The position numbers were made by a program, and so were the translations under genes. A stretch of DNA of 64,000 nt. Source: Acidimicrobiia bacterium. GTDB lineage: Bacteria; Actinomycetota; Acidimicrobiia; UBA2766. The stretch covers positions 1,856 to 65,855 of the forward strand of contig JBCKKC010000003.1 in the NCBI GenBank assembly GCA_038904395.1, in the 5' to 3' direction. Below, in pieces: positions 1-21,546 of the stretch; position 1 is the first letter of the stretch, and the number at the start of each line of letters is the position of its first letter. Below the pieces are notes generated by a model. That model was not told the DNA's origin. It did not search any database and saw only the letters and a list, made by a program, of their open reading frames with translations.

Positions 1-2646
1 CCTGTTGCGGATGCGGAGGGCCACATGAGCGCACCTGAGGATGGTCACATCGGCTTCCGAATCGCCATCGAAGGAAACCCACACATCGTGAGCGCAAGTT
101 TAGTGAATGTGCCCGGTGCCACGAGGCCAGTCGACCTCCCCGCCAATGGGAACCTTCAGGCAGTTGTCGGGCTACCACTCGGAAGACCTTGGGCTGACGC
201 TAGCAGTGCCGCTGGTGCTACCTGTACTGTCATTGAAGGTGTGGTTAATGACCCATACAGCGTGGACATGATCGTCGATGAACCACACCACTTTGCGCTG
301 CAGATTCGCTACAAGACTCAGTCAAGTGACCGGAACTCACAACCAATCGAAAATCTGCCAATCGTCCAGATTCCGGCCCAGTACAACAACACTGCGTATA
401 GCATCGCGTATGGCGCTGGCATCCCATTCAATAGATTTCCCGTTGCACAGTCGGCTGCTCCATTCGACATTGCCAGAGACCTGCCGTTTCCAACTAACCC
501 GGTACAGGCAGCCGGCAATGGGGCCCAGCCAAATCAGCAGCTTGGACAGCCAGGTGGAGGAGGTCTTGCCCCAGCACCACTGCGTCCAGGAGGTCTTGCC
601 CCAGCACCACTGCGTCCAGGGGGTCCCGGTGCCGGCGGCGGGGCTCAGGCACCTCTGCCTCAAGCCTTCCCACCGGCCGTTGCAGGTGAGATTGGCGGCG
701 CTACTCCCTTTAACTTGGCTGGCGCTCCGCCAGGCATTGGCGGCGACCATTATGTGACCCAGGGTATGGGGCGAACGCAACAATATCAGCAGCTAGGTTT
801 GCCGCAAGCGACGGTATTTCATCCGTATCATCCAGCAGGCTACGATCCGGATGGACCCCCAGGAGGGCACGACAGAATCAACAATGGTTTGGTAAGCACA
901 CCATTCGCAGCCAGGCTCAGCGCCGCCCACTTCCCCAACCTACCCGCATCGGTCCAGGCTGCGCTGGCCAACGAGGGTATCAACCAAGCCGACGTAGACA
1001 TCGACGTCGTTCAACAAAATATGCCCTGGTCAGCAAACACCGAAATCGAATTGCGACCCCACTATTGGACAGACCCCGCCGCACTAAACGTCGGCGTCTA
1101 CAACACCAACCGGGACCTTAGCGTTGGCCTCTTTCACGCCGACCGTGGCCTATCCATCCGCGGCCAGGCACCAGGAACAATGGGCCAATACCACATCTCC
1201 GTTCACCAAGGTCCTGCAGACCAAGAAACCGGCCTCACACCCATCGTCTCGTCGCCCGACAACATGCAGGTCGACAACCTCAACCACCGAAACAGTACAA
1301 GCATTTGGTCTGTTGTGAGAAATGGCCCACGAGCCGCGGTCACGTTGCACCTACTTCTTGATGACAATGATCATCAGCTCTTCCAAGACCACATGATCTG
1401 CTTCCCAGACTTGAACGGGGCCATACAAGGCTTGAGCGTGAACACTCCGCACGGTCGCACATGGGTAGCAAAACTCACCGGGCTAATCCAAGGCCCTGGC
1501 CGCGGCAACGTGGCTGCAGCCGAACCGGCTCCCGGAGGGCAGGCAGTCGCAGCAGCCGCACAGGCCCAGGCTGCGGCAGTCACAGGCATCGCGCCACCGT
1601 CAAGCGCTAACACCCAGCAACTGCCAGCACCCGCCAGAGGATGGAACCAGGCAACAATCGACAATCCACAAAGCACAGGTGGCCAGACCGTCGTGCTACA
1701 GCACCGGGGCACACTATTGGTTGCCAACCGGGCAAACAACGGTGGCATCAGGATCGGACGCTACAATCCGGCCAACCGAACATGGCAGTTCCAACCAATC
1801 GGATCAGCCAACTGCAACGCCCGAAGCTTGGCCGGAGTCGTCCACAACGGGGCTATCCACATTTTTGCCACAGGCCTCCAAGGCAACCAGTCTTCGATCT
1901 CCCATCTAAGTTCGGCCAATGGCCAAGACTGGCAAGAAGAACACCTCGACGTAGGCCACAGTAGCGGGCTTGGCCTGTCGGTTAGCCTGCACCAAGGCCA
2001 AATCAACATAGTCAACCGGGGCCAAGAAACCAACCAAGAATCAGGCATCTTCCAAATCCGCCACGTTACTCAAGGACCTCAAGGATGGGGAACAGCGACC
2101 ATAGCCCACGACGCCAGCGCAACCAGCAACACCGCGATTGGCGAATACGGTGGCCAACTACACGTCCTATACGAAACATGCCTGCAAGAAATCAACCACC
2201 TTTGGTACGATCCGTTGCCGGCCAATCGCTGGTCAGACGAAATCTTGGCAGCAAGAGTTGCAGCCAACACCGCACTGAACATCTCAACTTATGGCGGCCA
2301 GTTCCACATCAACTATGAGGGCGCCGGCAACCAAGTCATTCACCGCTGGTATGCGCCAACCACAGGGCAGTGGGGACAGGAAACCATCGCTGCCGACTTA
2401 GAGCGCGGCAGCAACATCACAACAGCCACCTACGGCAACCAATACCACCTAGTGTACGGCTCTGTAGGCAACCGGCTCGCACACCGCTGGTTCGACGCAC
2501 CCACGGGCCGTTGGTATAACGAGACACTCGACAACGGCAACGTAACCGCCATCGCCGGCCTGGACATGGTCGAGTTCAACGGCAGCTTCCACATCCTTGC
2601 AACAACGCCAACGGACACACTACGCCACAACTACTACCAGCCCTAA
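1..2646 (+). CDS. Secreted modular protein, paralog 1 (5' end cut by window edge): unknown N-module, Pro/Gly linker, unknown His-rich middle module, C-terminal seven-repeat beta-propeller-like domain
   Basis: Frame is open from nt 1. The ORF-track Met at 25 is internal: HIGFRIAIEG aligns with HLGFRIAIDR about 85 aa into the 2860..5700 paralog. The C-terminal ~340 aa consist of seven ~45-aa repeats (e.g. STYGGQFHINYEGAGNQVIHRWYAPTTGQWGQE) and end LRHNYYQP. Confidence 0.85.
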   Translation, partial: PVADAEGHMSAPEDGHIGFRIAIEGNPHIVSASLVNVPGATRPVDLPANGNLQAVVGLPLGRPWADASSAAGATCTVIEGVVNDPYSVDMIVDEPHHFALQIRYKTQSSDRNSQPIENLPIVQIPAQYNNTAYSIAYGAGIPFNRFPVAQSAAPFDIARDLPFPTNPVQAAGNGAQPNQQLGQPGGGGLAPAPLRPGGLAPAPLRPGGPGAGGGAQAPLPQAFPPAVAGEIGGATPFNLAGAPPGIGGDHYVTQGMGRTQQYQQLGLPQATVFHPYHPAGYDPDGPPGGHDRINNGLVSTPFAARLSAAHFPNLPASVQAALANEGINQADVDIDVVQQNMPWSANTEIELRPHYWTDPAALNVGVYNTNRDLSVGLFHADRGLSIRGQAPGTMGQYHISVHQGPADQETGLTPIVSSPDNMQVDNLNHRNSTSIWSVVRNGPRAAVTLHLLLDDNDHQLFQDHMICFPDLNGAIQGLSVNTPHGRTWVAKLTGLIQGPGRGNVAAAEPAPGGQAVAAAAQAQAAAVTGIAPPSSANTQQLPAPARGWNQATIDNPQSTGGQTVVLQHRGTLLVANRANNGGIRIGRYNPANRTWQFQPIGSANCNARSLAGVVHNGAIHIFATGLQGNQSSISHLSSANGQDWQEEHLDVGHSSGLGLSVSLHQGQINIVNRGQETNQESGIFQIRHVTQGPQGWGTATIAHDASATSNTAIGEYGGQLHVLYETCLQEINHLWYDPLPANRWSDEILAARVAANTALNISTYGGQFHINYEGAGNQVIHRWYAPTTGQWGQETIAADLERGSNITTATYGNQYHLVYGSVGNRLAHRWFDAPTGRWYNETLDNGNVTAIAGLDMVEFNGSFHILATTPTDTLRHNYYQP
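561..620 (+). repeat. Perfect 30-bp tandem duplication (2 copies) in the Pro/Gly linker of paralog 1
   Basis: aggtcttgccccagcaccactgcgtccagg at 561-590 is repeated exactly at 591-620. It encodes GGLAPAPLRP twice. Confidence 0.95.
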
Positions 2647-2697
2647 CCCTGGGGACACACCTGCCACCCCCCGTGGCAGAACCCCCCGGACACCTCC

Positions 2698-2747
2698 GGC
2701 CAGGAAACGGGCCAAGCCCTCCCCCAGGGCAGACCCGTTTCCTGGCC
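2698..2747 (+). terminator. Conserved 3' stem-loop downstream of paralog 1 (terminator-like, no U-tract)
   Basis: ggccaggaaacggg (2698-2711) pairs perfectly with cccgtttcctggcc (2734-2747). Two smaller hairpins precede it (ctgccac/gtggcag and ccgga/tccgg). The whole 2647-2754 block recurs at 5701-5808. Confidence 0.45.
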
Positions 2748-2783
2748 AACCCCATTTAGGCCAGCGCCTAAAAAGATTCCTCC

Positions 2784-2859
2784 AGTCTCAAGTGATTCTC
2801 AGCTTTGCCACATAGGGTGCTAAGGAATTACACATGAGATCCCTGGGGGGAAATTTTCA
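2784..2859 (+). promoter_or_regulatory. Conserved 5' leader/promoter block upstream of paralog 2
   Basis: agtctcaagtgattctcagctttgccacatagggtgctaaggaattaca...atccctggggggaaattttcaATG is almost identical to 6763-6836 upstream of paralog 3. It contains a G-rich SD (gggggga) 8 nt before the ATG. Promoter hexamers were not assigned. Confidence 0.45.
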
Positions 2860-5700
2860 ATGTATCATGCAAACCGAATTCGACACCGCCTCAAATACGT
2901 ACTCAGCAGCATCATGACTTTGTTGGTGCTCGTTGGAGGAATCAGCACGCTGTGCCCTACGGCCGAAGCTGTGCAAGACCTCAACGTGCACTACCAAAAC
3001 ATTCAAGCCCCGAATGGGCGCAAAATTGTACTTCCATTTACCTTTGCTCAGAGCGACCGAAACCGTGGCGTAGCAACATTCGTCTTCATCCAATCAGTGG
3101 ATGATGCTGACGCTCACTTAGGCTTTCGAATTGCTATCGATAGAAACCCAGCAATTGTGAACGTCGCTTTGGTCACTGTGCCAGGTAACCTGGAGCCCAT
3201 CCAGCTCGAAAACCGCGCAGACCTCGGAGACCGCGGACACCTTGCAGTAGCTGTCCCTCTACCCATCACAACACGAAGTACAGACGCAAATTGCACAATA
3301 GTCGAAGGCGTCGTCGATGAGGGTTACGGCGTCCTAGATGGCATTGCACAAGACCCTCACCAATTTGCCCTAAACATTCGTTATAAGTCCCGCCCAAATG
3401 ATGTAACGCAGCAGCCACAAGAGAACTTTTCAATAGTTGAGATACCTCAACGGTTCCATCACTCAGCCGATCGCGCTCGCCCCTTTACCTTCGCAAATTC
3501 ATTTACTGAATATTCGCATGGGGGTATCGGTGGTGGTGGAATACAACGACTCGACAACCCAATACCCTTCAACGACCGGACCATATTTCCGGTGGTTCAG
3601 CAGGCTGCCCCACTTGACATCGGGAGAGACCTTCCTCTCTCCCCAGCTGATAGCCCGCCAGCCAACGACGGGGGCGGTCAGTCGAATCAGCAGCCTGCAA
3701 CTGATGGACTTGCCCCACCACCCCCCCATCCCGAAGCTAACGCGGCCGGCAATCTGGCCCAGCCAATCGGACCCGGTTTGGCCAGCGGCGCAACACCATT
3801 CAACATGGCGGCAGCACCAGTGGGCCTTAATGGTCGGCCTGCAGTTACGCTTGGTATGGGACGGACGCAACAGTACGGAATCGGCCTACCCCAGGCGCCG
3901 GTGTTTCATCCCTATCACCCTGCTGGCGATGATCCGAACCCCGGCCCACATGCCAGAGACGGCATCGGCATTGTAAGCACCCCCTTCGCGGCCCGACTCC
4001 ACGGCGGCCACTTCGCCGCCCTACCCCAATCAGTCATCGCTGCTCTCGCCGCAGAAAACATAAACCCAGCAAATGTTGACATCAACATTGTCGAACAAAA
4101 CATGCCCTGGACACCAAACACCCAAATCTTGTTCCGGCCTCACTACTGGACCGACCCTGCCGCTCCTACCTTCGGTAACTACAACACAGCGAATCAAGTG
4201 CGCGCAGGCTTGTTCGAAACTGATGGTGGCCTATCAATCGCCGGCCAAGCGCCTGGAGCTATGGGTGCATACGGAATATCTGTACATCCCGGCCCCGAAC
4301 AAGCAGGCCGCGGCCCGGTCGTCGTTTCATCACCCGACAACATGGCCGTGCTAGGCCTAGGTCATCTAAACAGCACCAGCGGCTGGTCTGTCGTTAGAAA
4401 CGGGCAACGTGCCGCAGTGACACTTCATCTAGCCCTGAACGACGACGATCACGAAACATTCCAAAACTGCATGCTCAGCTTCCAAGACCTTAATGATCTC
4501 ATCCTAGGCCTTGCCGACAATCGATTGGGCGGCCCATGGGTAGCTAAACTAACTGCGCTAATCCGAGGCGCAGGGCCGGCTCCAGTCGCACAGGCCCTGG
4601 GCGTACCTGTACCGCAGGCAGGCCCCGGCGCCGCACGGCCAGGCGTGGCGCCACCGTCTAGCGCTAACACCCAACAACTGCCAGCCCCAGCCAGAGGATG
4701 GAACCAGGCAACAATCGACAATCCACAAAGCACAGGTGGCCAGACCGTCGTGCTACAGCACCGGGGCACACTCATGGTTGCCAACCGGGCAAACAACGGT
4801 GGCATCAGGATCGGACGCTTCAACCCAGCCAACCGAACGTGGCAATTCCAACCAATCGGATCAGCCAACTGCAACGCCCGAAGCTTAGCCGGAGTCGTCC
4901 ACAACGGGGCTATCCACATTTTTGCCACAGGCCTCCAAGGCGAACAGTCTTCGATCTGCCATCTGAGCTCGGGCGATGGCCAAGTCTGGCAAGAAGAACA
5001 CGTCGACGTCGGCCAAAGTAGCGGGCTAGGCCTCTCAGCTGCTGTCTACCGAGGCCGAATCAACATCGCTTGTCGCGATAACGAATTCCTATTCCAAAAC
5101 GGAGTTGGCCAAATCCGCCACGTGTTCCAAGGACGCCGCGGTTGGAAAACCGAAACCATCGCCAACGACGCCGCCGACGGCACGAGAACTGCAATCGGCG
5201 AATATGGTGGGCAACTACACGTCCTCTACACCACAAGGGCACAGGAGCTAGGGCACACCTGGTACACCCACGCCGACAACCGCTGGGCCCACGGCGCCGC
5301 AGCACGTGGCGTCGCACCCAACACTGCCATAAATGTTTCAACCTATGGCGGCCAGTTCCACATCAACTATGAGGGCGCCGGCAACCAAATCATCCATCGC
5401 TGGTTTGCGCCAACCACGGGGCAGTGGGCACAAGAAACCATCGCTGCGGACATCCTTCACGGCAGCAGCATCGCCACAGCCACTTTCGGTGACCAATACC
5501 ATCTTGTATATGGTTCCGCCGGAAACCGGCTCGCGCACCGCTGGTACGACGCCCCAACAGCCCGTTGGTACAACGAGACACTCGACAACGGCAACGTAAC
5601 CGCCATCGGCGGACTCGCCATGACCGAATACAACGGCAACTTCCACATCCTCACAACAACACCCACCAACGGCTTACGCCACAACTACTACCAACCCTAA
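2860..5700 (+). CDS. Secreted modular protein, paralog 2 (full length): signal peptide, unknown N-module, Pro-rich linker, His-rich middle module, C-terminal seven-repeat propeller-like domain
   Basis: 946-aa ORF with SD. N-terminal signal peptide LLVLVGGISTLCPTAEA. Conserved middle motifs FHPYHPAGDDPN, RPHYWTDPAA, ISVHPG and LHLALNDDDH. Seven C-terminal repeats ending LRHNYYQP. Confidence 0.9.
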   Translation: MYHANRIRHRLKYVLSSIMTLLVLVGGISTLCPTAEAVQDLNVHYQNIQAPNGRKIVLPFTFAQSDRNRGVATFVFIQSVDDADAHLGFRIAIDRNPAIVNVALVTVPGNLEPIQLENRADLGDRGHLAVAVPLPITTRSTDANCTIVEGVVDEGYGVLDGIAQDPHQFALNIRYKSRPNDVTQQPQENFSIVEIPQRFHHSADRARPFTFANSFTEYSHGGIGGGGIQRLDNPIPFNDRTIFPVVQQAAPLDIGRDLPLSPADSPPANDGGGQSNQQPATDGLAPPPPHPEANAAGNLAQPIGPGLASGATPFNMAAAPVGLNGRPAVTLGMGRTQQYGIGLPQAPVFHPYHPAGDDPNPGPHARDGIGIVSTPFAARLHGGHFAALPQSVIAALAAENINPANVDINIVEQNMPWTPNTQILFRPHYWTDPAAPTFGNYNTANQVRAGLFETDGGLSIAGQAPGAMGAYGISVHPGPEQAGRGPVVVSSPDNMAVLGLGHLNSTSGWSVVRNGQRAAVTLHLALNDDDHETFQNCMLSFQDLNDLILGLADNRLGGPWVAKLTALIRGAGPAPVAQALGVPVPQAGPGAARPGVAPPSSANTQQLPAPARGWNQATIDNPQSTGGQTVVLQHRGTLMVANRANNGGIRIGRFNPANRTWQFQPIGSANCNARSLAGVVHNGAIHIFATGLQGEQSSICHLSSGDGQVWQEEHVDVGQSSGLGLSAAVYRGRINIACRDNEFLFQNGVGQIRHVFQGRRGWKTETIANDAADGTRTAIGEYGGQLHVLYTTRAQELGHTWYTHADNRWAHGAAARGVAPNTAINVSTYGGQFHINYEGAGNQIIHRWFAPTTGQWAQETIAADILHGSSIATATFGDQYHLVYGSAGNRLAHRWYDAPTARWYNETLDNGNVTAIGGLAMTEYNGNFHILTTTPTNGLRHNYYQP

Positions 5701-5751
5701 CCCTGGGGACACACCTGCCACCCCCCGTGGCAGAACCCCCCGGACACCTCC

Positions 5752-5801
5752 GGCCAGGAAACGGGCCAAGCCCTCCCCCAGGGCAAACCCGTTTCCTGGC
5801 C
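5752..5801 (+). terminator. Conserved 3' stem-loop downstream of paralog 2
   Basis: Same 14-bp perfect stem ggccaggaaacggg / cccgtttcctggcc as at 2698-2747. The flanking block 5701-5808 differs from 2647-2754 at one position by eye. Confidence 0.45.
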
Positions 5802-5838
5802 AACCCCACTTTCAACGCCCGGACTTATTCGACTTTTT

Positions 5839-6749
5839 GTAACCATTCACGTCCCCCGGCCCGTCATTGTAGGGTGGCGGACAGGAACTTCCCCTGCCCG
5901 CTCCCGTCAAACCGGACGTGGACCTCTCGATTCATCCGGCTTCCTCACTTGGGGCCAGGTCAACTCGTGACTCCTCCCCGTTACCAGGTTGGTCACCCGA
6001 CCCGACCCAAGCGTCGACCCCTTTCCTCCAGTCCCATTACAGAACTTTCATAGGTACTACAGGCCGATCCGCCCCAGTGCACCGCATCCGATACTCTACG
6101 CCTTCAGCTTTCGACCTCGACGTTCTCTCGTTCCCCTGGCCACGCCAGGAGGCAACGGTACGACTGGTTCCCGAGTTCCATCCAAGAGCCCACGCTACGT
6201 TCATGCCCCCTATACGCCGGAGAGCGCCTGGCCAGCTACGAGATTCGCCACCAGACTTATCCCAAGACAGCTCACCTATCCTGGTTCTGCTCTCAACATT
6301 GCCCTTTCGACGCGTCATCGGAAGGTTCGCTTTCGCTCATCTCCGTAGCACATACCTGACAGGGGTTCCCCTGCCTTTTCCTGCAACGCTCAGCACCCCG
6401 CCTCTTAAACGACGCACCTTGCAGTGGTTTGGTACCTCTCCCTCGCAGAGCCGGCACCGGAGGACCAAGGAGCCTGCGCTCCCTCCTCCATCTCTTGAAC
6501 AGCATTGCTTCAGTCACGCGAGCTTACGCCCTTGTCACCTCCACATTCACGGCACACGCGAGCCCTAGGCTTTGGCAGGGCGTGGCAATCCAGGGTCTGT
6601 GGCGAAGCCGCAGGTCCACCCACAGATTCGATCCATTTTGAATTGCTTGCTTCGCGGCGCAAAGCAGTAAAGCCTGGATTGCTTCGCTCCGCTCGCAATG
6701 ACGAAAGAGCTGGTAGCGCCACCGTGGCTTCGGAGACGTGAATGGTTAC
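5839..6749. mobile_element. MITE-like repeat copy R1 (about 222 bp of element sequence), interrupted by a group II intron
   Basis: Perfect 12-bp terminal inverted repeats: gtaaccattcac (5839-5850) and gtgaatggttac (6738-6749). Flanked by the 7-bp direct repeat acttttt (5832-5838 and 6750-6756). Internal arms cgtcatt|gcgagccctaggctttggcagggcgtggcaatccagg and cctggattgcttcgctccgctcgcaatgacg match the other copies in the window. Confidence 0.85.
5869..6557 (-). mobile_element. ORF-less group II intron (689 nt), class C-like features
   Basis: On the minus strand the 5' end is GUGUGCC and the 3' end is ...CCACCCUAC. A 34-nt domain V lies at 5909-5942 (AAGCCGGAUGAAUCGAGAGGUCCACGUCCGGUUU) with the AGC triad, a GAGA loop and a CA bulge. 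Domain VI is a helix with a bulged A 7 nt from the 3' end. Removing 5869-6557 restores the repeat consensus cgtcattgcgagccc exactly. No RT-like ORF is present. Confidence 0.85.
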
Positions 6750-6762
6750 ACTTTTTTGGGCG

Positions 6763-6836
6763 AGTCTCAAGGGATTCTCAGCTTTGCCACATAGGGTGTT
6801 AGGGAATTACAAGCAATCCCTGGGGGGAAATTTTCA
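6763..6836 (+). promoter_or_regulatory. Conserved 5' leader/promoter block upstream of paralog 3
   Basis: Near-identical to 2784-2859, including ctcagctttgccacatagggtg and ccctggggggaaattttcaATG. Confidence 0.45.
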
Positions 6837-8834
6837 ATGCATCTAGCAAGCCAAATTCGACAACGCTTCAAATTCGCATTGGGCAGCCTCTTAACGTTGC
6901 TCGTGCTTGTCGGAGGTATCGGCGCACTGTGCCCATCAGCCGAAGCTGTCGGCCCAAATCCGGCCAACCGTGACACGCCTTTTAACATCGCGGCTGCACC
7001 GCAAGGCCTTGACGGTGGGCACGTCGTGACCCTAGGGCTGGGCCGCACACAACAGTACGGGGCGCTCGGCCTGCCGCAAGCCCCAGTGTTTCACCCATAT
7101 CACCCGGCTGGCGACGACCCAGATGCGGGACCAGCAGTCCACGCCAGGATCAACCAGGGTTACGTCAGCACACCCTTCGCAGCCGAACTGGACCCCGCCT
7201 ACTTCGCCAACCTACCCCAATCAGTCGTCGCTGCTCTCGTCGCAGAAAACATAAACCCAGCAAATGTTGACATCAACATCGTCGAACAAAACATGCCCTG
7301 GACTCCAGACACCGTAATTTTGTTCCGCCCCCACTATTGGACCGACCCAGCCGCACTCACATTCGGCGCCTACAACAACGTCACACAAGTACGCGTTGGT
7401 TTCTTCCACCCAGACCGGGGCCTCACAATCGCCGGGCAAGCACCTGGAACGATCGGCCCATATGGAATATCCGTCCACCCGGGACAAGCTGTCAACCCGC
7501 CAGCCGACACGCGCACACCCATCGTATCTTCACCCGAAAACATGCCAGTACCAGGCCTCAATTCCCGAGAGAGCTCAAGCGTCTGGTCTGTCGTTCGAGA
7601 GGGCGGCCGCGCAGCAGTTACGTTGCATCTTGTCCTCGACGACAACGACCACGGAACGTTCCAAAATTTCATGGCCACCTCCCTCAACCTCATCGAGCTC
7701 ACCCAACAAATGAATGCCGCCGGGTCGCAGGTTGCAGGCAGGGCTTGGGTAGCAAAACTAACCGGACTAATCCAAGGCGCAGGCCGTGGAGACGTAACCC
7801 GTGCGGAGCCAGCGCCAGGCCCACGCCCATCCGGATGGCAACAGGCAACGGTCGATAGCCCACAAAGCACCGGCAGCCAAGCCGTAGTACTACAGAACCG
7901 TGGCATGTTGATGGTGGCCAATACATCTGACCGTAATGGCATCAGGTTGGGGCGCTACAACCAAGCCAATAGAACGTGGCAATTCCAACAAATTGGTTCA
8001 GCCAATTGCAATGGCCAAAGCCTGGCCGGAGTCGTCCACGGTGATACCTTCCACATTTTCGCCACAGGCCACCAGGCGGGACAATCCTCCGTCTGCCACC
8101 TAAGCTCTCTTAACGGAGTGGACTGGCGAGAAGAACACCTCGATGTGGGCCAAAGCAGTGGGCTCGGCCTCTCGGCTACCATCTACCAAGGCCGCATCAA
8201 CCTTGCCAACCGAGGCAACGAAACCGCACCGGGATCGGGCGTCTACCAAGTCCGGCAAGTATTCCAAAGCCCACAAGGCTGGAGATCTGCAACCATCGCC
8301 GATGACGCCAGCGCAACCAGCAACACCGCGATCGGCGTATACGGCGACCAACTACACGCTATGTACGAAACAGTCATACATGAACTCAACCACCTCTGGT
8401 ACGCACCAGCACCAGTGGGCGTTTGGGCCAACGAAATAGTGGCACGAGAGGTTGCTGCCGACACCGCCATGAACATCTCAACCTACAGCGAACAGTTCCA
8501 CCTCAACTACGAAGCCCGCGGACAGATCATCCACCGCTTCTACGACCCGGGGGCAGGTTGGGTACAAGAAACCGTCGCTGCAGACATCCTTCCCGGCAGC
8601 AACATTGCCACAGCAACATACGGCAACCAATACCACCTCGTCTACGGCGCCGCTGGTAACCGACTAGCACACCGATGGTACGACGCAACCACCGGCCGAT
8701 GGTACGACGAAACACTCGACAACGGCAACGTAACCGCCATCGGCGGACTCGCCATGGTCGAATACAACGGCAACTTCCACATCCTCACAACAACACCAAC
8801 TAATGAACTGCGCCATTTGAACTACCAACCTTGA
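6837..8834 (+). CDS. Secreted modular protein, paralog 3: signal peptide, His-rich middle module, C-terminal seven-repeat propeller-like domain (no N-module)
   Basis: 665-aa ORF. Signal peptide LLVLVGGIGALCPSAEA is followed directly by TPFNIAAAPQGL...FHPYHPAGDDPD...RPHYWTDPAA. The C-terminal repeats end LRHLNYQP. Confidence 0.9.
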   Translation: MHLASQIRQRFKFALGSLLTLLVLVGGIGALCPSAEAVGPNPANRDTPFNIAAAPQGLDGGHVVTLGLGRTQQYGALGLPQAPVFHPYHPAGDDPDAGPAVHARINQGYVSTPFAAELDPAYFANLPQSVVAALVAENINPANVDINIVEQNMPWTPDTVILFRPHYWTDPAALTFGAYNNVTQVRVGFFHPDRGLTIAGQAPGTIGPYGISVHPGQAVNPPADTRTPIVSSPENMPVPGLNSRESSSVWSVVREGGRAAVTLHLVLDDNDHGTFQNFMATSLNLIELTQQMNAAGSQVAGRAWVAKLTGLIQGAGRGDVTRAEPAPGPRPSGWQQATVDSPQSTGSQAVVLQNRGMLMVANTSDRNGIRLGRYNQANRTWQFQQIGSANCNGQSLAGVVHGDTFHIFATGHQAGQSSVCHLSSLNGVDWREEHLDVGQSSGLGLSATIYQGRINLANRGNETAPGSGVYQVRQVFQSPQGWRSATIADDASATSNTAIGVYGDQLHAMYETVIHELNHLWYAPAPVGVWANEIVAREVAADTAMNISTYSEQFHLNYEARGQIIHRFYDPGAGWVQETVAADILPGSNIATATYGNQYHLVYGAAGNRLAHRWYDATTGRWYDETLDNGNVTAIGGLAMVEYNGNFHILTTTPTNELRHLNYQP

Positions 8835-8958
8835 CCACAGCGGCCAGGAAACGGGTAAGCCAAGCGCTCTGAGGGTGGCTGACAAGGTCATTTGCCAATA
8901 AAAGTTAAGGCGCGCAAACGCGATAGGCTACTCGGCATCTGTTGACCGCGAATGACGT

Positions 8959-10956
8959 TTGTTTATGAGAACCCAACCTACCCCAGCCACGAACTTGTCG
9001 TCGGCAAATACCACCAGACATAGGCGATCCACTCGCTTTGGCACGAAGGTCCTAGCCTGCTTCGTGGCGGTTTTGGCTGCAGCGATGGTGGTCCTGCCAT
9101 GTTCTCAGGCATCAGCCATTGGCGAACACGGATACGTACTCCTTAGGAATGGGTTAAGGCTGGAACCGGGTCCATATAGGGTGTCTCTCATTCAAGATGG
9201 ACATTACAATGTGCTGGCAGATATCCTGCGTCAAATAACTCAGGAGATCAACGTCGCCATCGGCCGGCCGACATTAGTACTGGACTCCCAACCGCTGTCT
9301 CCGCTTGAGCCTCTCAGAGAGCAGCAGATCATTGTCGAGGAAGCCTTGCCTGGACCTGACAATGACGTGCATACCCTCGGATTCACTCACAGTAGGCAAA
9401 TTCTCTCAACTGCCAACTCTGTCACAGCTGCTCTGGAACGAGACGCGAGGATCGGCATTTTGCCAGTAGCTTTTACCGACACGCAGCATCCGTGGATAAT
9501 TAAGGCAACCGTATTGCACGAAATGCTCCATGCCCTGGGAGTAGGCCACGTGGATGGTCTTTACCACGGGCGGCTACAAACCATGAATCCAACCTTGAGC
9601 GATCCCGTACAAGCAACGCTAGGCGATGGTGACATCAATGCTTTACGGGAACTCGCAGGGTTCCCTGTAGTTCATAGCGTTGACCCACCATCTGGTTCTG
9701 TAGGGTCAAGTCTCGTTATTGCCGGTGAAAATTTTCTTGATGGTTCAACCTCGGTTTTCTTTGGAGGAACCCGTGCTGAGAGCGTCACGGTCCTCGACCG
9801 TAAGCGTATTTCTGTTGCGGCTCCGCGCAATGCCGAAGGTCCGGTTCAAATCACGGTTGAAACGAGGATCGGGAGATCAGCCCCGGGAGGAACTCCGATC
9901 TTTGTGTACAACCAGACTCAAGGCCCTTTATCCCTTCCTGTGACCCGAGGATGGAACCAGGCAACAGTCGATAGCCCACAGAGCACTGGCAGCCAAGCCG
10001 TAGTGCTAAAAGACCGTGGCATGCTGGTCGTGGCGAACAGAGCCAGCGATGGTAGCCCCAGGGTTGGGCGCTACAATGCGACCAACCGAACGTGGCAGTT
10101 CCAACGAATCGGCTCAGCGAACTGCAGCGGCCGAAGCCTGGCCGGAGTCGTCTACAACGGCGCCTTCCATATTTTGGCTACGGGCCAGCAAGCCGGACAA
10201 CCATCCGTCTGCCACTTGAGCTCGGCTGACGGACAAGCTTGGCAAGAAGAACACCTCGATGTAGGCCAAAGCAGCGGTCTCGGCCTCTCAGCTACCATCT
10301 ACCAAGGCCGCATCAACCTTGCCAACCGAGGCAACGAAACCTCACCCGGATCAGGCGTCTACCAAATCCGTCAAGTATTCCAAGGCCCACAAGGCTGGGG
10401 AGCAGTAACACTTGCCGCCGACGCCAGCCCGAACGGCAGCACGTCCGTCGGTGAATATGGTGGCCAATTTCACGCTCTCTACGAATCAAGCCGACAAGAA
10501 GTCAACCATTTCTGGTACAATCCCGCACCAATCGACAGGTGGTCACGCGAAACCTTGGCGACAGGGGTCGCAGTCAACACGGCCATGAACATCTCAAACT
10601 ACAGCGGCCAGTTCCACCTCAACTATGAAGCGGCCGGCAACCAAATCATCCACCGCTGGTACGACCCGCAAAGCGGCCGATGGGGACAAGAAACCATCGC
10701 CGCCGACATGCTCCACGGCAGCAACATTGCCACAGCAACATACGGTAACCAATACCATCTTGTTTACGGAGCGGCAGGGAACCGACTAGCACACCGCTGG
10801 TACGACGCAACCACCGGCCGCTGGTACAACGAGCCACTCGACAACGGCAACGTAACCGCCGTTGGCGGTCTCAGCATGATCGAGTACAACGGCAACTTCC
10901 ACATCCTCACAACCACACCAACCAACGGCCTCCGACACAGCTACTACCAACCCTAA
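8959..10956 (+). CDS. Secreted matrixin-like zinc metalloprotease + IPT/TIG domain + C-terminal seven-repeat propeller-like domain (paralog 4)
   Basis: Signal peptide ...VVLPCSQASA. Metzincin motif HEMLHALGVGH followed by a Met-turn-like QTMNP and GDGDINALRELAG, the same layout as MMPs. IPT/TIG-like segment PVVHSVDPPSGSVGSSLVIAGENF...FVY. The propeller domain is shared with paralogs 1-3 and ends LRHSYYQP. Confidence 0.88.
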   Translation: MFMRTQPTPATNLSSANTTRHRRSTRFGTKVLACFVAVLAAAMVVLPCSQASAIGEHGYVLLRNGLRLEPGPYRVSLIQDGHYNVLADILRQITQEINVAIGRPTLVLDSQPLSPLEPLREQQIIVEEALPGPDNDVHTLGFTHSRQILSTANSVTAALERDARIGILPVAFTDTQHPWIIKATVLHEMLHALGVGHVDGLYHGRLQTMNPTLSDPVQATLGDGDINALRELAGFPVVHSVDPPSGSVGSSLVIAGENFLDGSTSVFFGGTRAESVTVLDRKRISVAAPRNAEGPVQITVETRIGRSAPGGTPIFVYNQTQGPLSLPVTRGWNQATVDSPQSTGSQAVVLKDRGMLVVANRASDGSPRVGRYNATNRTWQFQRIGSANCSGRSLAGVVYNGAFHILATGQQAGQPSVCHLSSADGQAWQEEHLDVGQSSGLGLSATIYQGRINLANRGNETSPGSGVYQIRQVFQGPQGWGAVTLAADASPNGSTSVGEYGGQFHALYESSRQEVNHFWYNPAPIDRWSRETLATGVAVNTAMNISNYSGQFHLNYEAAGNQIIHRWYDPQSGRWGQETIAADMLHGSNIATATYGNQYHLVYGAAGNRLAHRWYDATTGRWYNEPLDNGNVTAVGGLSMIEYNGNFHILTTTPTNGLRHSYYQP

Positions 10957-11183: not shown

Positions 11184-14051
11184 TCAACGGCCACTCATAA
11201 CAAATATGCAAGGCTCATCTGGGGTCGTGCCGGCGAGAGCGATCGTTTGGGAAGGCGAGTAGTATAAACCCGCTGTGCCGCCGCTAGTCGGGGTTGTGAT
11301 TGTGCCGCCGAAAGCGGACCCTGAACATTGCGACGTGTGCCAGTCAACATAGACCGTCGCATAACTTACGTTGGTCGTCGGGAGAGATTGAGGGATGGCT
11401 ATTGTGCACTCCCCTGTAGGCGAAAGAGTGATCCATGCACTACCGGCGTCGTATTGGCAAGCGCCTGAGACAGTTGTTGATGCGGGCGCCGAGGTTGTCG
11501 TCGTTGTTGTTGTTGTTGTTGTTGTTGTCTCAGGTTCCTCGGTCGATGTGGCGCCTTTCCAGCTGATTTTCGCATGACCGTTGCCGGCCTGTTGGTTTGA
11601 GGTGCAAGTCGGACCGGAGGGCGCTGCGGAAGGGGCCGTCGTCGTTGAATCACCACCCAACTTGGGAAGATAACAATAGTTGTTGTCGTTTGCCCCATCT
11701 AGGTTCATGAGAGTGCTATTCAGGAAGTTGGTGCCACCTCCACCGCCGCCAGCGCCACCACCATACGTTGTGTCCGACGTGACGCCACCAGGATGACCGC
11801 CACCACCAACGCCAGATCCCAAGTCAGAGCCTGCCTGGTCAGTGTAGAATCCGCCACCACCGCCACCGCCACCGCCAGCGCTGGGACTGGTTGCCTCTCC
11901 GCCTTTGCCAGTGTTCCCAGCCGAAACACCGCTATTACCTCCGCCTCCACCCACACCGCAGTTCGCTTTACCTGTGCCGGCACTGTTGCCACCTTGACCA
12001 CCGCCGTCACCCCCCGCACCACCGGGGGGACCTGTCAGCACGCATGCCGATCCCTGACCACTCCTTGGGGCTTCATTGCCTGGAATGGCGTGACCGCCCT
12101 TTCCGCCGCTTGGGGGCGTTGACACTTTCGACGGATCTGGCACAAAGCCGGGCTCGCCAGCACCACCGCCGCCACCGGCGACCAAAAGCGTGACTCCATT
12201 GGGGAATTTATCGGGATCGGCCGGAAAGCTCTTGCACTTGCCCGGTTCGCAGCGCACAGTGGTAGCACCACCGCCAATACCGGCCTCTTTGCTGCCCCCT
12301 GAGCCACCACTACCAGTGATCGGGACGCCGTTTGGTCCGGGGAAACTACCGCCAGAGCCGACAGCACAAGTACCCGACTCGGAACCACCAGCGGCACCCA
12401 CATAAACGGAGACTTCATCGCCACCTTGGAGCTTGCCCGGCCCAACCGGCAACTGAGCGTGAACCTGGCCACCAGGGCCACCAGCTGACTCAACTTTCTT
12501 CTTAGTGGACCCCACCGTGAGCGTCGTCGGCTGACCAGTTTTAGGGTCGAGAGGGCCAAGCTTCCTCGTACCCCCGCCTGAGGCTCCGGTTGCCTCGACA
12601 TCTAAGGAAGTCACGCCATCGGGTACAGTCAATCGCCCAGGATTGTCACAGGCAAATTCCTTCTTGTCTTCACCGGCTTTCTTGGTTATCTTCAACTCCA
12701 CCCGACCGTTGCCGTTGCCTCCCGGAACAGGGGCTCCTTCCTCACAAGTCACGTTGGGACTGCCGCAGTCCCCTCCCACATCGGAACTTTGAACAAAGCT
12801 CAATCCGCCGCCGCCGCCACCCCCGCCTGCGCCGCCACCCTTCACCAACTTGTACTGACCCGAATCATTGAATTCATCATAAAGTGAGAGTGCTTTTTCA
12901 TATGAGCACGAATTAGGGATCTTGACCATCGAACCGCTGGCGCCGCCCCCACCACCGTAACTTTGGATGTCTCCTTTGTTGTAACCGCCTCCAGCTCCAC
13001 CGCCACCCCCACCACTTAAGCGCCACAGTGTGTCGTTGTCGCCGGGGGTATCCTCGCCGTTTGCATTACTACCGTTACCACCATTACCCACAGTGTCGTT
13101 ACGAAATCCGCTTTGGCCCATCTTGAAGTTAGTGGAAACAGCCGAAGAGTCACTCTTGCTAAAAGTTAGCGCCTGACCGTTTGCAGTTCCACCCTTACCG
13201 GAGGATTTATCACCGGCTGGGGATCCGCCTCCGCCACCGCCACCGCCTCCGCCGCCACCGGACACAATTCCCGATATTGTACAATCCTGAAAATGTGGAT
13301 TCTGATAACTGAAAAGGCTAAGCCCATCAGCACCCGAGGCCGCGGCCCCCTTGCTGCCAGGTATTGCTGCACCTGGTGCACCAGCACCGCCATTTTGAGC
13401 CTTCCCTGCAACAACTGTGCTGTACCCAGGCAGATCTCCGAGCGAACTCTTTCCCCCTCCACCAGCTCCGCCCCCACCCCCAGCAACGGCGAGAGGAGGG
13501 ATGTCCGGGTTGCGGCATGCCCAATAGGTCTTTATATGTTCTGGATTTCCGCACTTAACTATCGACGAACCACCCCCGCCGCCAGCGCCACTAGCCGAGC
13601 CACCAGTGGACCCACCTGTCCCACCTGGATGACCCGATGCAATTTCCTCAGCGGGGATCGTGTCGTTGTGGCCACTTGAAGTGCTCTCAGATCCAGATCC
13701 GGCAGGGCCGGCCTTGCGACTTTCCCACTTGCCGCTACCCCCAACAGTGATCGCAATCACATCACCAGAGTGCAGGGTTCCCCCCGCCGCAAGCAGGGAC
13801 TTCAACTCGAGCTTGGAGCCCAGTCCCCCTGGGGAACCCCACATAGGTCCGCTCTTCCCCCCCGCTGCTCCCCACATGGTGATGGCAACATCATCCCAGA
13901 GGGAGCCAATCTTGCAAACGTGTGTTCCGGGATTGTCATAAGTTGCGGCGCACTCCGGGATTGGAGTCTCCGATGCCACTTGCCCGCTCTGCTGAGAGCA
14001 AGCCGCAAGAAGCAGGGTAAAAACTATCAGGACAATCCGATACCGTAACAT
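11184..14051 (-). CDS. Large glycine-rich lipoprotein with repeated Gly-rich (PF12810-like) modules and a poly-Thr linker
   Basis: 955-aa ORF. Lipobox LLLAAC at residues 13-18. At least three modules follow the pattern C..G....VP.GV..L.V...GA.GG.....GG.GG......L..G..V.V.VG..GG, interspersed with GGGGGAGGG runs. A T12 tract precedes a Cys-containing C-terminal domain. Confidence 0.8.
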   Translation of the reverse strand: MLRYRIVLIVFTLLLAACSQQSGQVASETPIPECAATYDNPGTHVCKIGSLWDDVAITMWGAAGGKSGPMWGSPGGLGSKLELKSLLAAGGTLHSGDVIAITVGGSGKWESRKAGPAGSGSESTSSGHNDTIPAEEIASGHPGGTGGSTGGSASGAGGGGGSSIVKCGNPEHIKTYWACRNPDIPPLAVAGGGGGAGGGGKSSLGDLPGYSTVVAGKAQNGGAGAPGAAIPGSKGAAASGADGLSLFSYQNPHFQDCTISGIVSGGGGGGGGGGGGSPAGDKSSGKGGTANGQALTFSKSDSSAVSTNFKMGQSGFRNDTVGNGGNGSNANGEDTPGDNDTLWRLSGGGGGGAGGGYNKGDIQSYGGGGGASGSMVKIPNSCSYEKALSLYDEFNDSGQYKLVKGGGAGGGGGGGGLSFVQSSDVGGDCGSPNVTCEEGAPVPGGNGNGRVELKITKKAGEDKKEFACDNPGRLTVPDGVTSLDVEATGASGGGTRKLGPLDPKTGQPTTLTVGSTKKKVESAGGPGGQVHAQLPVGPGKLQGGDEVSVYVGAAGGSESGTCAVGSGGSFPGPNGVPITGSGGSGGSKEAGIGGGATTVRCEPGKCKSFPADPDKFPNGVTLLVAGGGGGAGEPGFVPDPSKVSTPPSGGKGGHAIPGNEAPRSGQGSACVLTGPPGGAGGDGGGQGGNSAGTGKANCGVGGGGGNSGVSAGNTGKGGEATSPSAGGGGGGGGGFYTDQAGSDLGSGVGGGGHPGGVTSDTTYGGGAGGGGGGTNFLNSTLMNLDGANDNNYCYLPKLGGDSTTTAPSAAPSGPTCTSNQQAGNGHAKISWKGATSTEEPETTTTTTTTTTTTSAPASTTVSGACQYDAGSAWITLSPTGECTIAIPQSLPTTNVSYATVYVDWHTSQCSGSAFGGTITTPTSGGTAGLYYSPSQTIALAGTTPDEPCIFVMSGR
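11503..11526 (-). repeat. (GTT)8 trinucleotide microsatellite (read as ACA Thr codons on the coding strand)
   Basis: Eight uninterrupted GTT units on the plus strand. They form part of the 12-Thr tract of the glycine-rich lipoprotein. Confidence 0.95.
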
Positions 14052-15289: not shown

Positions 15290-16915
15290 ATGCCGCCGCT
15301 GCACACCTCAATATCGAGCCTAGTTGCCTGCCAGGCAACGCCGAAACGGCTCTGGGGAGCTAGCCCGGGCCTTGTCGAAACTCTCTCAGCACGAAACCTC
15401 ATAAAATCCCTAAAGGTCGGACGACTTAGTGCCGAAACTGGTTGGGTGAGAAAACAACACTCAGCGCGGACAATCAGGGCAAGATACGGCAGGCCAAGAG
15501 CATTAGTAGCACTGTGCGCGTGCGCAATCTTCTTGCTGGGCCTATCGGCGTGTCAAACTACCGGCAGATCTACCAAAACACAATCCGAAAACCGATCGGG
15601 TCAAACCGCGTCTGAAGGTGCGCCCCATTGCGACATCCCTCTCCGAGGTAGCAATAACACCTACATCGAAGGCCCACCGTTCAACTTCACAGTGGCACCC
15701 TCTCCAAACGAGGTTGTCACGGTCACGGGGACTCTCAAAGACTCAACACCTTTGGTAAACGGCCCCGGCGCAAGGCAACTAAAGGCCAATATTGCCGAAG
15801 CCACGATCAAGAAGAGATCTACCAATGAAGTTATCGGGACTGTCGGCAGCGGAGCCAAATTCAGTACATTTGTCCCATATCTGGATTTCGATGCGAATCA
15901 GTACCCTTCCTTCTCTCTTGATGGACGTTTGGGAGCGAGCCAGCCTGAAAGGATTAACGCGCTTTGGGGCAGGCTGCACGAAGCACCTAATACCACCGTT
16001 CCGAACAATGTCGATCAACCAGATGTGGTCATCCAAAATGTCACGTCGCAGGCAGTGACAGTTTCCGATATCTACCGAGCGTTCGACTGTACCCGTGCCC
16101 TCAGCGGCGCGGTGTACAGTCCCCGCACTGGGGGCACTGAGAGCTGGCCCGTTGAAGAGTCGATTGAGCCAAGTCCAACGGGTCCAAATGGATGGAGACT
16201 CTGGATACCTGAGGCAAAGCTGCCCCAGGCCGATTATCGAGGCAACTCATTTGGCCAAGTACAAATCTGTGGCACTTCGTGCCTATATGCCATGTGGGGC
16301 ATGTCTAGCGCTGGCCGCACCCAACAATGTGTTTCCGCTCCCGTAAGACCCGAACCCGAGCCCTCCACCCAAGCCGCACTAATCTGCAAGGTCGATGAGA
16401 CCAGCAGCCCAGTCACTTTCATTGTCACCGAAAGCAAGTGCGCGGCACCTCTTGGGTGGGGACATATCGAAGGCCGACATCGCTCCGTCAACGTCCGGGT
16501 TTACAATTGCACGCCGGTCGATGTGTGGATACAAGTAAGAGACTGGAGTGGCGATCTCAACGATAACCCGAACGGCAAAAAAATCTCCCCCGGGGGATAC
16601 GTTACTTTTTCGACTGGTAGTGGTGGGGACACGCATGGATGGGGTCGGCTGTGTACGGACAGCCAATGTCCACAGGCTCATGGCGAGAATTCACCAGCGA
16701 TCATGGCAAATTTTCATTGGGAGAACGACTTTGGAACAAGCAACAAGGCCGAGTGCGGCGTGGCCCCAACATTCCAATACGGGTCAGCATCACCCACATA
16801 TTGGTGTAGAGGGGATGTCGACAACACAGGTGACCTAGACAATATTGCTGGCTTCGTCCTGTGCAGTCCAACAAACGATAAGCCCAACTTGGTATGCCCC
16901 AAAGCGTTCCCGTGA
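15290..16915 (+). CDS. Cys-rich secreted lipoprotein, unknown function (likely true start GTG at 15446)
   Basis: The long ORF contains an internal in-frame GTG followed by a basic n-region and the lipobox LLGLSAC. The mature part has many Cys and no motif I recognise. Confidence 0.65.
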   Translation: MPPLHTSISSLVACQATPKRLWGASPGLVETLSARNLIKSLKVGRLSAETGWVRKQHSARTIRARYGRPRALVALCACAIFLLGLSACQTTGRSTKTQSENRSGQTASEGAPHCDIPLRGSNNTYIEGPPFNFTVAPSPNEVVTVTGTLKDSTPLVNGPGARQLKANIAEATIKKRSTNEVIGTVGSGAKFSTFVPYLDFDANQYPSFSLDGRLGASQPERINALWGRLHEAPNTTVPNNVDQPDVVIQNVTSQAVTVSDIYRAFDCTRALSGAVYSPRTGGTESWPVEESIEPSPTGPNGWRLWIPEAKLPQADYRGNSFGQVQICGTSCLYAMWGMSSAGRTQQCVSAPVRPEPEPSTQAALICKVDETSSPVTFIVTESKCAAPLGWGHIEGRHRSVNVRVYNCTPVDVWIQVRDWSGDLNDNPNGKKISPGGYVTFSTGSGGDTHGWGRLCTDSQCPQAHGENSPAIMANFHWENDFGTSNKAECGVAPTFQYGSASPTYWCRGDVDNTGDLDNIAGFVLCSPTNDKPNLVCPKAFP

Positions 16916-21348: not shown

Positions 21349-21386
21349 GAACCGCCTGCATCAGACCAAGCGCAGTGCCCTCATTT

Positions 21387-21407
21387 GCCAGCTCCACCGG
21401 AGCTGGC
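21387..21407 (+). terminator. Short perfect hairpin after the first protease gene
   Basis: gccagctcc acc ggagctggc gives a 9-bp stem and a 3-nt loop. No U-tract follows. Confidence 0.3.
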
Positions 21408-21546
21408 AGATCAAGCCAATCGAGCAGGTACAGTCTCAGCGCTTGCTTAACTTAGGCTGCTACGAATTAATACTTAATATTTGTATATCGGCGTTCGACT
21501 GACCACAGGCGAGCACAACCAGATACAGCCCACGGGGGGCTTCCCA

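Follow-up and report, generated by a model that had tools for sequence, protein, structure and literature searches.

A four-gene array from an Acidimicrobiia contig joins different N-terminal heads to one predicted seven-bladed PLL-like propeller

The contig JBCKKC010000003.1 of an Acidimicrobiia bacterium (assembly GCA_038904395.1) raises the question of why four neighboring genes encode proteins that end in one and the same domain and differ in the parts placed in front of it, and what this common domain contributes to the proteins. The analysis covered a stretch of 64,000 nucleotides of this contig, referred to here as the window, at the very beginning of which the four genes are located. 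A preliminary description of the first 10,956 positions had already proposed a tandem array of four same-strand genes, and all four open reading frames (ORFs) were indeed present on the plus strand at the positions assigned to them. The results presented below favor the reading that the genes encode exported modular proteins in which a multivalent, lectin-type propeller holds exchangeable heads at a repeating ligand, an explanation that we consider rather probable. The array comprises the following features:

1..2646, plus strand: gene 1, a partial ORF with its 5' end beyond the start of the window (full product P0002, 972 aa), arranged as signal peptide, N-module, Pro/Gly linker, middle module and propeller
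25..525, plus strand: N-module of gene 1, orphan and beta-rich
685..1557, plus strand: middle module of gene 1, belonging to an unnamed domain family of about 250 aa
1633..2643, plus strand: predicted seven-bladed propeller of gene 1
2860..5700, plus strand: gene 2, complete (P0001, 946 aa), arranged as signal peptide, N-module, linker, middle module, linker and propeller
2860..2970, plus strand: putative Sec-type signal peptide of gene 2 (aa 1-37, AEA/V)
2971..3639, plus strand: N-module of gene 2 (aa 38-260)
3640..3762, plus strand: Pro/Gly-rich linker of gene 2, the C-terminal part of a predicted disordered segment (aa 193-305) with a predicted local distance difference test (pLDDT) score below 50
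3763..4623, plus strand: middle module of gene 2 (aa 302-588)
4690..5697, plus strand: propeller of gene 2 (aa 611-946)
6837..8834, plus strand: gene 3 (P0003, 665 aa)
6837..6947, plus strand: putative signal peptide of gene 3
6945..7829, plus strand: middle module of gene 3
7827..8831, plus strand: propeller of gene 3
8959..10956, plus strand: gene 4, 665 aa when read from a TTG start codon (P0008, 630 aa, in the public annotation), arranged as signal peptide, metzincin-type head, one TIG domain and propeller
9118..9663, plus strand: predicted metzincin-type protease head of gene 4 (aa 54-235)
9517..9549, plus strand: zinc motif of gene 4, H187-E-x-x-H191-x-x-G-x-x-H197
9583..9585, plus strand: Met-turn residue M209 of gene 4
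9664..9867, plus strand: IPT/TIG domain of gene 4 (aa 236-303; PF01833)
9943..10953, plus strand: propeller of gene 4

The last 335 or so residues align without gaps across the four proteins, are 68-77% identical and end in LRH..YQP in each case, which bears out the common C-terminal domain of the preliminary description. The distribution of the remaining modules was likewise reproduced, with the N-module confined to genes 1 and 2, the middle module to genes 1 to 3, and the protease head together with the TIG domain to gene 4. In tblastn searches of the 64-kb window, carried out separately for each module, the propeller was found four times and no more, the middle module three times (62-65% identity) and the N-module twice (41% identity over 177 aa), and no remnants of any of the three modules were present in the spacers or elsewhere in the window. 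The ratio of nonsynonymous to synonymous substitution rates (dN/dS), determined by the method of Nei and Gojobori, amounted to 0.17-0.25 for the middle module and to 0.20-0.31 for the propeller, and the comparison of the two N-modules yielded a proportion of nonsynonymous differences (pN) of 0.345 and of synonymous differences (pS) of 0.757 (saturated). All modules thus appear to be under purifying selection, the dN/dS values of the middle module and the propeller pointing to maintained genes rather than to decaying copies. Moreover, the identity between the propeller copies forms a mosaic along the blades: the propellers of genes 1 and 2 are 96% and 92% identical in blades 1 and 2 and 58-66% identical in blades 3 to 5, and those of genes 3 and 4 are 90% identical in blade 3 and 54% identical in blade 4. 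This mosaic pattern indicates that gene conversion has probably occurred among the propeller copies; together with duplication and a swapping of front ends, such conversion may have given rise to the array.

The common domain had been described as a propeller of seven repeats. Alignment of the blades revealed seven repeats of about 47 aa (44-52 aa), each of which begins with a tryptophan residue; in the gene 2 protein the blades start at W614, W661, W710, W762, W809, W856 and W903, and blades 4 to 7 share the consensus W-x-x-E-T-[IL]...Y-G-x-Q-x-H-[ILV]-x-Y...[IL]-x-H-R-W-[YF]. An AlphaFold2 model of the full-length gene 2 protein, computed from a 27-row alignment, displays seven four-stranded groups (28 strands in total), with pLDDT values mostly above 90 over residues 612-946, in agreement with a closed propeller. 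When this model was compared with the structures of the PDB by means of Foldseek, ranks 1 to 15 were occupied by PLL2, PLL5, PHL, PLL4, PLL and PLL3, with E-values of 3e-13 to 2e-11, template modelling (TM) scores of 0.73-0.78 (normalized to the target) and root-mean-square deviations of 3.0-3.5 Å over about 340 of about 343 residues. The next matches were the six-bladed fucose lectins AFL/FleA, AOL and AAL (E about 1e-10, TM about 0.61), and GH145 hydrolases and Kelch domains were interleaved with these or ranked below them (E about 1e-10 to 1e-9, TM 0.53-0.63). The model predicts that the propeller is closed and PLL-like, at a sequence identity of 13-16% to the structures of the PLL family.

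The gene 2 sequence and a profile of the four propellers gave no relevant match in the PDB. Profile matches arose only after five or six distant relatives had been added, and the resulting 10-sequence profile reached AFL (6.7e-7), AOL (4.5e-6) and PLL3 (1.1e-4), as well as one Kelch protein (0.0027). Weaker relatives of the window profile pass the gathering score of the Pfam model PF03984 (DUF346), which is the Pfam domain of PLL (PMC10481521); these include P0034 with 113.7 bits and additionally P0073, P0085 and P0088. P0034 matched all structures of the PLL family at 1e-12 to 1e-7, and a phmmer search of the PDB with P0073 gave no match. The propeller of the array is a divergent member of the known superfamily of PLL, DUF346 and AAL proteins. 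The preliminary description had left the N-module and the middle module without a family name, and neither these two nor the propeller matched any Pfam or NCBIfam model above threshold. Below threshold, Pfam matched Fungal_lectin to the propeller (E 0.07); a match to Collagen_bind_2 with 20.3 bits (cut-off 22) was regarded as repeat noise.

The strongest argument for a targeting function comes from the relatives of the propeller and the heads that they carry. An exhaustive HMMER comparison of the full-length profile with 1.84 billion cluster representatives resulted in 335 matches, the best 150 of which are considered here. Outside this contig, only five proteins among the matches listed are collinear with the propeller over several consecutive blades, and P0009 and P0011 align across all seven. 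These five proteins and three further ones with DUF346 matches at the level of the repeats have the following composition:

P0009: middle module and propeller, like gene 3
P0011: Peptidase_S8 and propeller
P0029: metzincin head, TIG, GNAT and propeller, like gene 4 plus an insert
P0087: propeller and PARG-like macro domain
P0088: reprolysin-like M12B and propeller
P0073: glucosaminidase head, repeat-level DUF346 match
P0041: Peptidase_C70, repeat-level DUF346 match
P0082: repeats inside a GSDH-family protein, repeat-level DUF346 match

Scans with the propeller alignment detected no further propeller loci in GTDB representative genomes, to which the source genome itself apparently does not belong, or in JGI metagenome contigs, and the propeller subfamily is rare. 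The architecture of a shared propeller with different heads, which had been proposed on the basis of the array, thus extends to proteins in which the same propeller appears to be fused to Peptidase_S8, to M12B, to metzincin, TIG and GNAT domains or to the middle module. Since the propeller is joined to a different and usually hydrolytic head wherever it is present, these fusions provide the main support for its interpretation as a targeting module.

With respect to the heads, the protein encoded by gene 4 allows the most specific prediction. It contains the motifs HEMLHALGVGH...QTMNP, on which it had been classified as a matrixin-like protease. The metzincin-type zinc motif and the Met-turn were substantiated, and the narrower assignment to the matrixins could not be substantiated, as Peptidase_M10 scored 14.2 bits against a cut-off of 24. 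The single TIG domain was recovered by PF01833 at residues 236-303 (35.1 bits, E 1.4e-8). Two further genes of the window encode heads of this type:

19567..21348, plus strand: metzincin-type gene, head followed by TIG domains, no propeller
21481..23421, plus strand: metzincin-type gene, head followed by TIG domains, no propeller

Their heads are 27-34% identical to that of gene 4 and contain HExxHALGxxH...Q.M, and Pfam matched two and three TIG stretches, respectively. No variation among gene 4, its two paralogues in the window and P0029 was seen at H187, E188, H191, G194, H197 and M209. A profile of these four heads obtained 60 weak matches in the PDB, none below an E-value of 0.01, and 59 of them were metzincins, including acutolysin and other adamalysins, archaemetzincin and the matrix metalloproteinases MMP-12, -9 and -1. 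The residue following the third histidine of the zinc motif is valine, tyrosine or cysteine; the named metzincin families are typified by serine, aspartate, glutamate or proline at this position. By its sequence, the head of gene 4 would be a metzincin that reaches no named family model, and the front end of this gene probably belongs to, or derives from, the family of the genes at 19567..23421.

The middle module of genes 1 to 3 had been labeled as His-rich, a label that applies only insofar as a few histidines are conserved, the overall histidine content of 3.5% being below that of the propeller (5.1%). Sequence searches of Pfam, NCBIfam and the PDB provided no match to this module, which was found in more than 130 protein clusters; about 130 of the best 150 of the 335 HMMER matches cover the middle module only. 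In an alignment of 128 sequences, at least 80% conservation was observed for Y339, P344, P347, H350, Y352, P389, Q413, R426, P427, W430, H476, S491, T521 and H523 (numbering of the gene 2 protein). An AlphaFold2 model of the module, calculated from 38 sequences, reached a pLDDT of 88.5 and a predicted TM score of 0.88, and the presence of conserved polar residues on a confidently predicted fold suggests an active or ligand-binding site. No structural neighbor of the model was detected in the PDB (best Foldseek E-value 0.08, TM 0.13-0.17). In the BFVD database, the model matched an uncharacterized protein of Fadolivirus (E 3.9e-12, TM 0.56/0.52) as well as uncharacterized proteins of Hyperionvirus, Mimivirus LCMiAC01, Catovirus, Hokovirus and Klosneuvirus. 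An interpretation as ADP-ribosyltransferase, considered because of an Arg ... Ser-Ser ... pattern, was discarded, as no ExE motif follows and Foldseek yielded no fold of this kind.

Members of the middle-module family are combined with TIG, with He_PIG/Rib or with NHL repeats, or have no partner domain. Many of those with high GC content are lipoproteins, and the matches in genomes belong to metagenome-assembled genomes (MAGs) of Holophagaceae and to two proteobacterial MAGs. Many of the low-GC members are devoid of a signal peptide and two of them run on into ankyrin repeats; the low-GC bacteria that carry such proteins are probably intracellular. The neighborhoods of homologues at the loci L009 and L010 consist of housekeeping genes (ArgRS, SPOR, NagZ-like GH3 and M50) and give no functional hint. 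The fold matches in giant viruses together with the members that lack a signal peptide or bear ankyrin repeats suggest an effector-like domain that is shared among amoeba-associated organisms. It is conceivable, and proposed here with some reserve, that the middle module is the first example of a domain family not yet described, with a fold that the PDB lacks. Its invariant Tyr, His, Gln, Arg and Ser residues would then form a new catalytic or ligand site, and the module would constitute a new class of enzyme or effector that is targeted by a propeller in the present case; this family would span TIG/He_PIG lipoproteins of Holophagaceae, the propeller proteins of Acidimicrobiia, low-GC bacteria and viruses of the Klosneuvirinae type. 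The N-module, by comparison with the best 150 of the 335 HMMER matches, has no relatives outside genes 1 and 2.

Sec-type signal peptides had been assigned to the three complete genes. The leaders read from the translations consist of a basic n-region and a hydrophobic core followed by AEA/V or ASA/I, residues 2-25 of the gene 2 protein are helical in the AlphaFold2 model, and the full product of gene 1 (P0002) starts with the same signal peptide as that of gene 2. The public start of gene 4 (P0008) is located 35 codons downstream of the TTG codon at 8959 and excludes the segment 8959..9063, which removes the basic n-region; the longer reading frame restores a complete Sec-type leader (RHRRSTRF...ASA/IGE). 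Neither an LPXTG motif nor a lipobox was found in the translations of genes 1 to 4. The leaders suggest that the four proteins may be exported via Sec. In the Pro/Gly linker of gene 1, at 685..760, a perfect tandem duplication GGLAPAPLRPGGLAPAPLRPGG was observed that is absent from gene 2, which suggests a recent slippage or expansion in this linker.

According to the proposed mechanism, the products of the array would be Sec-exported, extracellular proteins, each composed of independently folding modules on disordered Pro/Gly/Ala-rich linkers and ending in a closed seven-bladed propeller. The propeller may act as a multivalent binding module with pockets between adjacent blades, as in the PLL and AAL lectins, lined by Gln-x-His of strand 2, His-Arg-Trp of strand 3 and Trp-x-x-Glu of the next blade. 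The ligand would be a repeating one, probably a glycan, carried by a surface or polymer, and its binding would keep the N-terminal heads at this target. These heads would be a metzincin-type zinc endopeptidase with a TIG spacer in the case of gene 4 and, in the case of genes 1 to 3, a module of about 250 aa whose invariant His, Arg, Gln, Tyr and Ser residues suggest an active or ligand site, to which genes 1 and 2 add the orphan beta-rich module.

The lectin part of this mechanism was examined by comparing the binding positions with those of the characterized proteins. PHL and the PLLs possess two rings of sites between the blades, a hydrophobic fucose site built on two tryptophans (e.g. W199 and W214 of PHL) and a polar site composed of R-x-E of strand 2, the tryptophan of H-x-W and Gln/Trp of the next blade (PMC5584973; PMC12203525). 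The blades of PLL and of the window propellers align without gaps, so that W-S-x-W at the blade start of PLL corresponds to W-x-x-E, G-R-L-E-V-F of strand 2 to G-Q-F-H-I-N, and A-L-W-H-I-W of strand 3 to Q-I-I-H-R-W. The leading tryptophan and H-x-W of the polar site are retained in the window blades. A pair of histidines is present in blades 2, 4, 5, 6 and 7, with blades 1 and 3 being degenerate; the full set of Q-x-H, H-R-W and the W-x-x-E of the next blade occurs only in blades 4 to 6, and blades 2 and 7 keep the two histidines. The same pair is usual in the DUF346 proteins P0034 and P0073.

Several results weigh against the mechanism as formulated above. The window propellers remain below the DUF346 gathering score of 22 bits, with 16.3 bits for gene 4 and 15.1 bits for the isolated propeller of gene 2. 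The tryptophan pair of the hydrophobic site is gone and replaced by Ile/Leu/Ala and Glu/Ala/Gln; the polar site is kept in position, with R-x-E changed to Q-x-H and Gln to Tyr/Phe; and in the HMMER alignments both the fucose-binding Arg and the Glu/Gln of AFL align with histidine. Since the sugar-contacting residues of the solved relatives are not kept, the ligand might not be a sugar. The middle module occurs in proteins without a signal peptide and beside ankyrin repeats, and therefore its target need not be extracellular or associated with glycans. The signal peptides were recognized by eye, and the strands of the N-module (aa 55-191 in the gene 2 model) were predicted with low confidence (pLDDT 50-62). 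The lectin resemblance noted in the preliminary description hence stands for the fold, as seen with Foldseek, and for the profile homology; it does not extend to the fucose-contacting residues of PLL/PHL and AAL/AFL. At the level of individual residues the propeller appears to fall outside both characterized lectin families. Fold and site location are lectin-like, the fucose recognition of PLL and AAL is probably lacking, and fucose binding is not to be assumed as the contact residues are not conserved.

The absence of the lectin contact residues is at the same time an argument for the view that the propeller is itself an enzyme, similar to GH145 or sialidases, or a Kelch-like platform for protein binding, with the repeated histidines being catalytic or structural. 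Foldseek additionally returned the seven-bladed GH145 proteins BT3686 and BACCELL_00856, a putative neuraminidase and Kelch proteins at E about 1e-10. However, the TM scores of 0.53-0.63 are clearly below those of the PLL family, the profiles reach significantly only lectins apart from the single Kelch protein at 0.0027, and the motif recurs in five of seven blades, as is typical of multivalent binding sites rather than of a single active site, so that this view is considered improbable. Closer to the targeting mechanism is the proposal that the propeller anchors the proteins to an envelope polymer of the producer itself, like the wall-binding repeats of autolysins, and keeps the heads on a monoderm surface. 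The organism is actinobacterial according to the best matches of its NuoG protein, retention of proteins with neither LPXTG motif nor lipobox would need a non-covalent anchor, and P0073 joins DUF346 repeats to a peptidoglycan glucosaminidase in the classic layout of a wall-bound autolysin. The solved PLL, PHL, AAL and AFL proteins, on the other hand, are soluble lectins directed against foreign glycans (PMC5584973, PMC12203525), and such self-anchoring appears rather unlikely; it differs from the targeting mechanism in the identity of the ligand only, and the sequence offers no distinction between self and non-self ligands.

The array could also be viewed as an ordinary expansion of paralogues without functional logic in the heads, with gene 3 as a deletion derivative of a gene of the gene 1/2 type and gene 4 as a chance fusion. 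In favor of this view, gene 3 has the same leader and the same middle module as genes 1 and 2 and lacks just the N-module, and a group II intron located between genes 2 and 3 demonstrates the activity of mobile elements at this locus. The purifying selection on all modules, the independent recurrence of both types of fusion on other contigs (P0009 and P0029) and the occurrence of propellers with other heads in further lineages nevertheless make such an expansion highly improbable. The targeting mechanism, in which a lectin-type propeller positions exchangeable heads, remains the reading that we prefer.

The intron and the other surroundings of the array are as follows:

5865..6557 (ends approximate), minus strand: group II intron without an ORF, about 0.7 kb long, inside the spacer of 1136 bp that separates genes 2 and 3
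5775..5823 (approximate): long GC-rich hairpin between the stop codon of gene 2 and the group II intron
11184..14051, minus strand: predicted 955-aa lipoprotein (LLAAC lipobox) with Gly-rich runs and a poly-Thr tract, directly downstream of the array and convergent with it, no match in Pfam or NCBIfam
15290..16915, plus strand: 541-aa Cys-rich protein with a possible internal signal-anchor segment, no match in Pfam or NCBIfam

The intron was recognized by the Rfam models RF01999 (73.9 bits at 6354..6486) and RF00029 (46.5 bits at 5869..5944); the models of domains I-IV and of domains V/VI match about 410 nt apart, which is too short for an intron-encoded reverse transcriptase. It interrupts the array and is not part of the proteins. 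A scan for promoters and terminators yielded no more candidates than shuffled sequence did. Over its first 23 kb, the window is rich in unannotated and apparently exported proteins, comprising the array, the TIG proteins and the 541-aa protein, and the GC content is even across the window (0.53-0.60). Eight housekeeping proteins of the window each stood alone when about 15 billion proteins were clustered at 90% identity, and the best matches of NuoG (54129..56702) were 59-61% identical, every named one in this range originating from an Acidimicrobiia MAG. These data point to a very poorly sampled source lineage, most likely an uncultured actinobacterium.

Work on propellers of the PLL and AAL type has so far been confined to lectins that stand alone, from insect and fungal pathogens, and the locus and its relatives present the same fold at the C-terminus of proteases, cell-wall hydrolases and proteins with other heads in environmental bacteria. 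In the literature searched, neither a whole PLL-type propeller as targeting module on enzymes nor an experimental study of multidomain DUF346 architectures was found. The pair of histidines in place of the sugar-contacting residues predicts a different ligand specificity, for the study of which the four paralogues form a natural set. What is truly unexplored is the middle module, which has neither name nor structure. It is at the same time a tractable target, being well predicted, under purifying selection, found in more than 130 sequence clusters and similar in fold to proteins of giant viruses.

The PLL lectins, which are the best structural match, resemble the window propellers in having seven W-motif blades of about 47 aa with four strands each, and PLL paralogues, too, are encoded close together in one genome, that of Photorhabdus (PMC12203525). 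They differ in standing alone, with about 370 aa and no recognized signal peptide, whereas the window propeller is the C-terminal module of proteins of 665-972 aa with apparent Sec-type leaders. The AAL family (AAL, AFL/FleA and AOL, with the related RSL) provides the best sequence-profile match in the PDB and has a conserved polar pair at the same positions of strands 2 and 3, but is six-bladed instead of seven-bladed and attains lower TM scores than the PLL family. Multidomain DUF346 (PF03984) proteins share the repeat consensus (...Q-L-H-V-F...L-x-H-x-W...W-x-x-E), as seen in P0034 and P0073, and follow the same principle, with a propeller fused to glucosaminidase, Peptidase_C70 or reprolysin-like domains; in contrast to these, the window propellers constitute a small collinear subgroup below the Pfam gathering score. 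The metzincins, i.e. matrixins (M10), adamalysins (M12B) and archaemetzincins, have HExxHxxGxxH and the Met-turn in common with the head of gene 4, which, unlike the named families, forms a small family of its own with the two window genes and P0029. The combination of an enzyme with a non-catalytic targeting module is familiar from the carbohydrate-binding modules of secreted glycosidases and proteases. Such systems are comparable to the array in that one conserved binding module is connected to different heads via flexible linkers; here, the putative targeting module is a whole multivalent lectin-type propeller instead of a small carbohydrate-binding module, and two of the three heads are without known activity.

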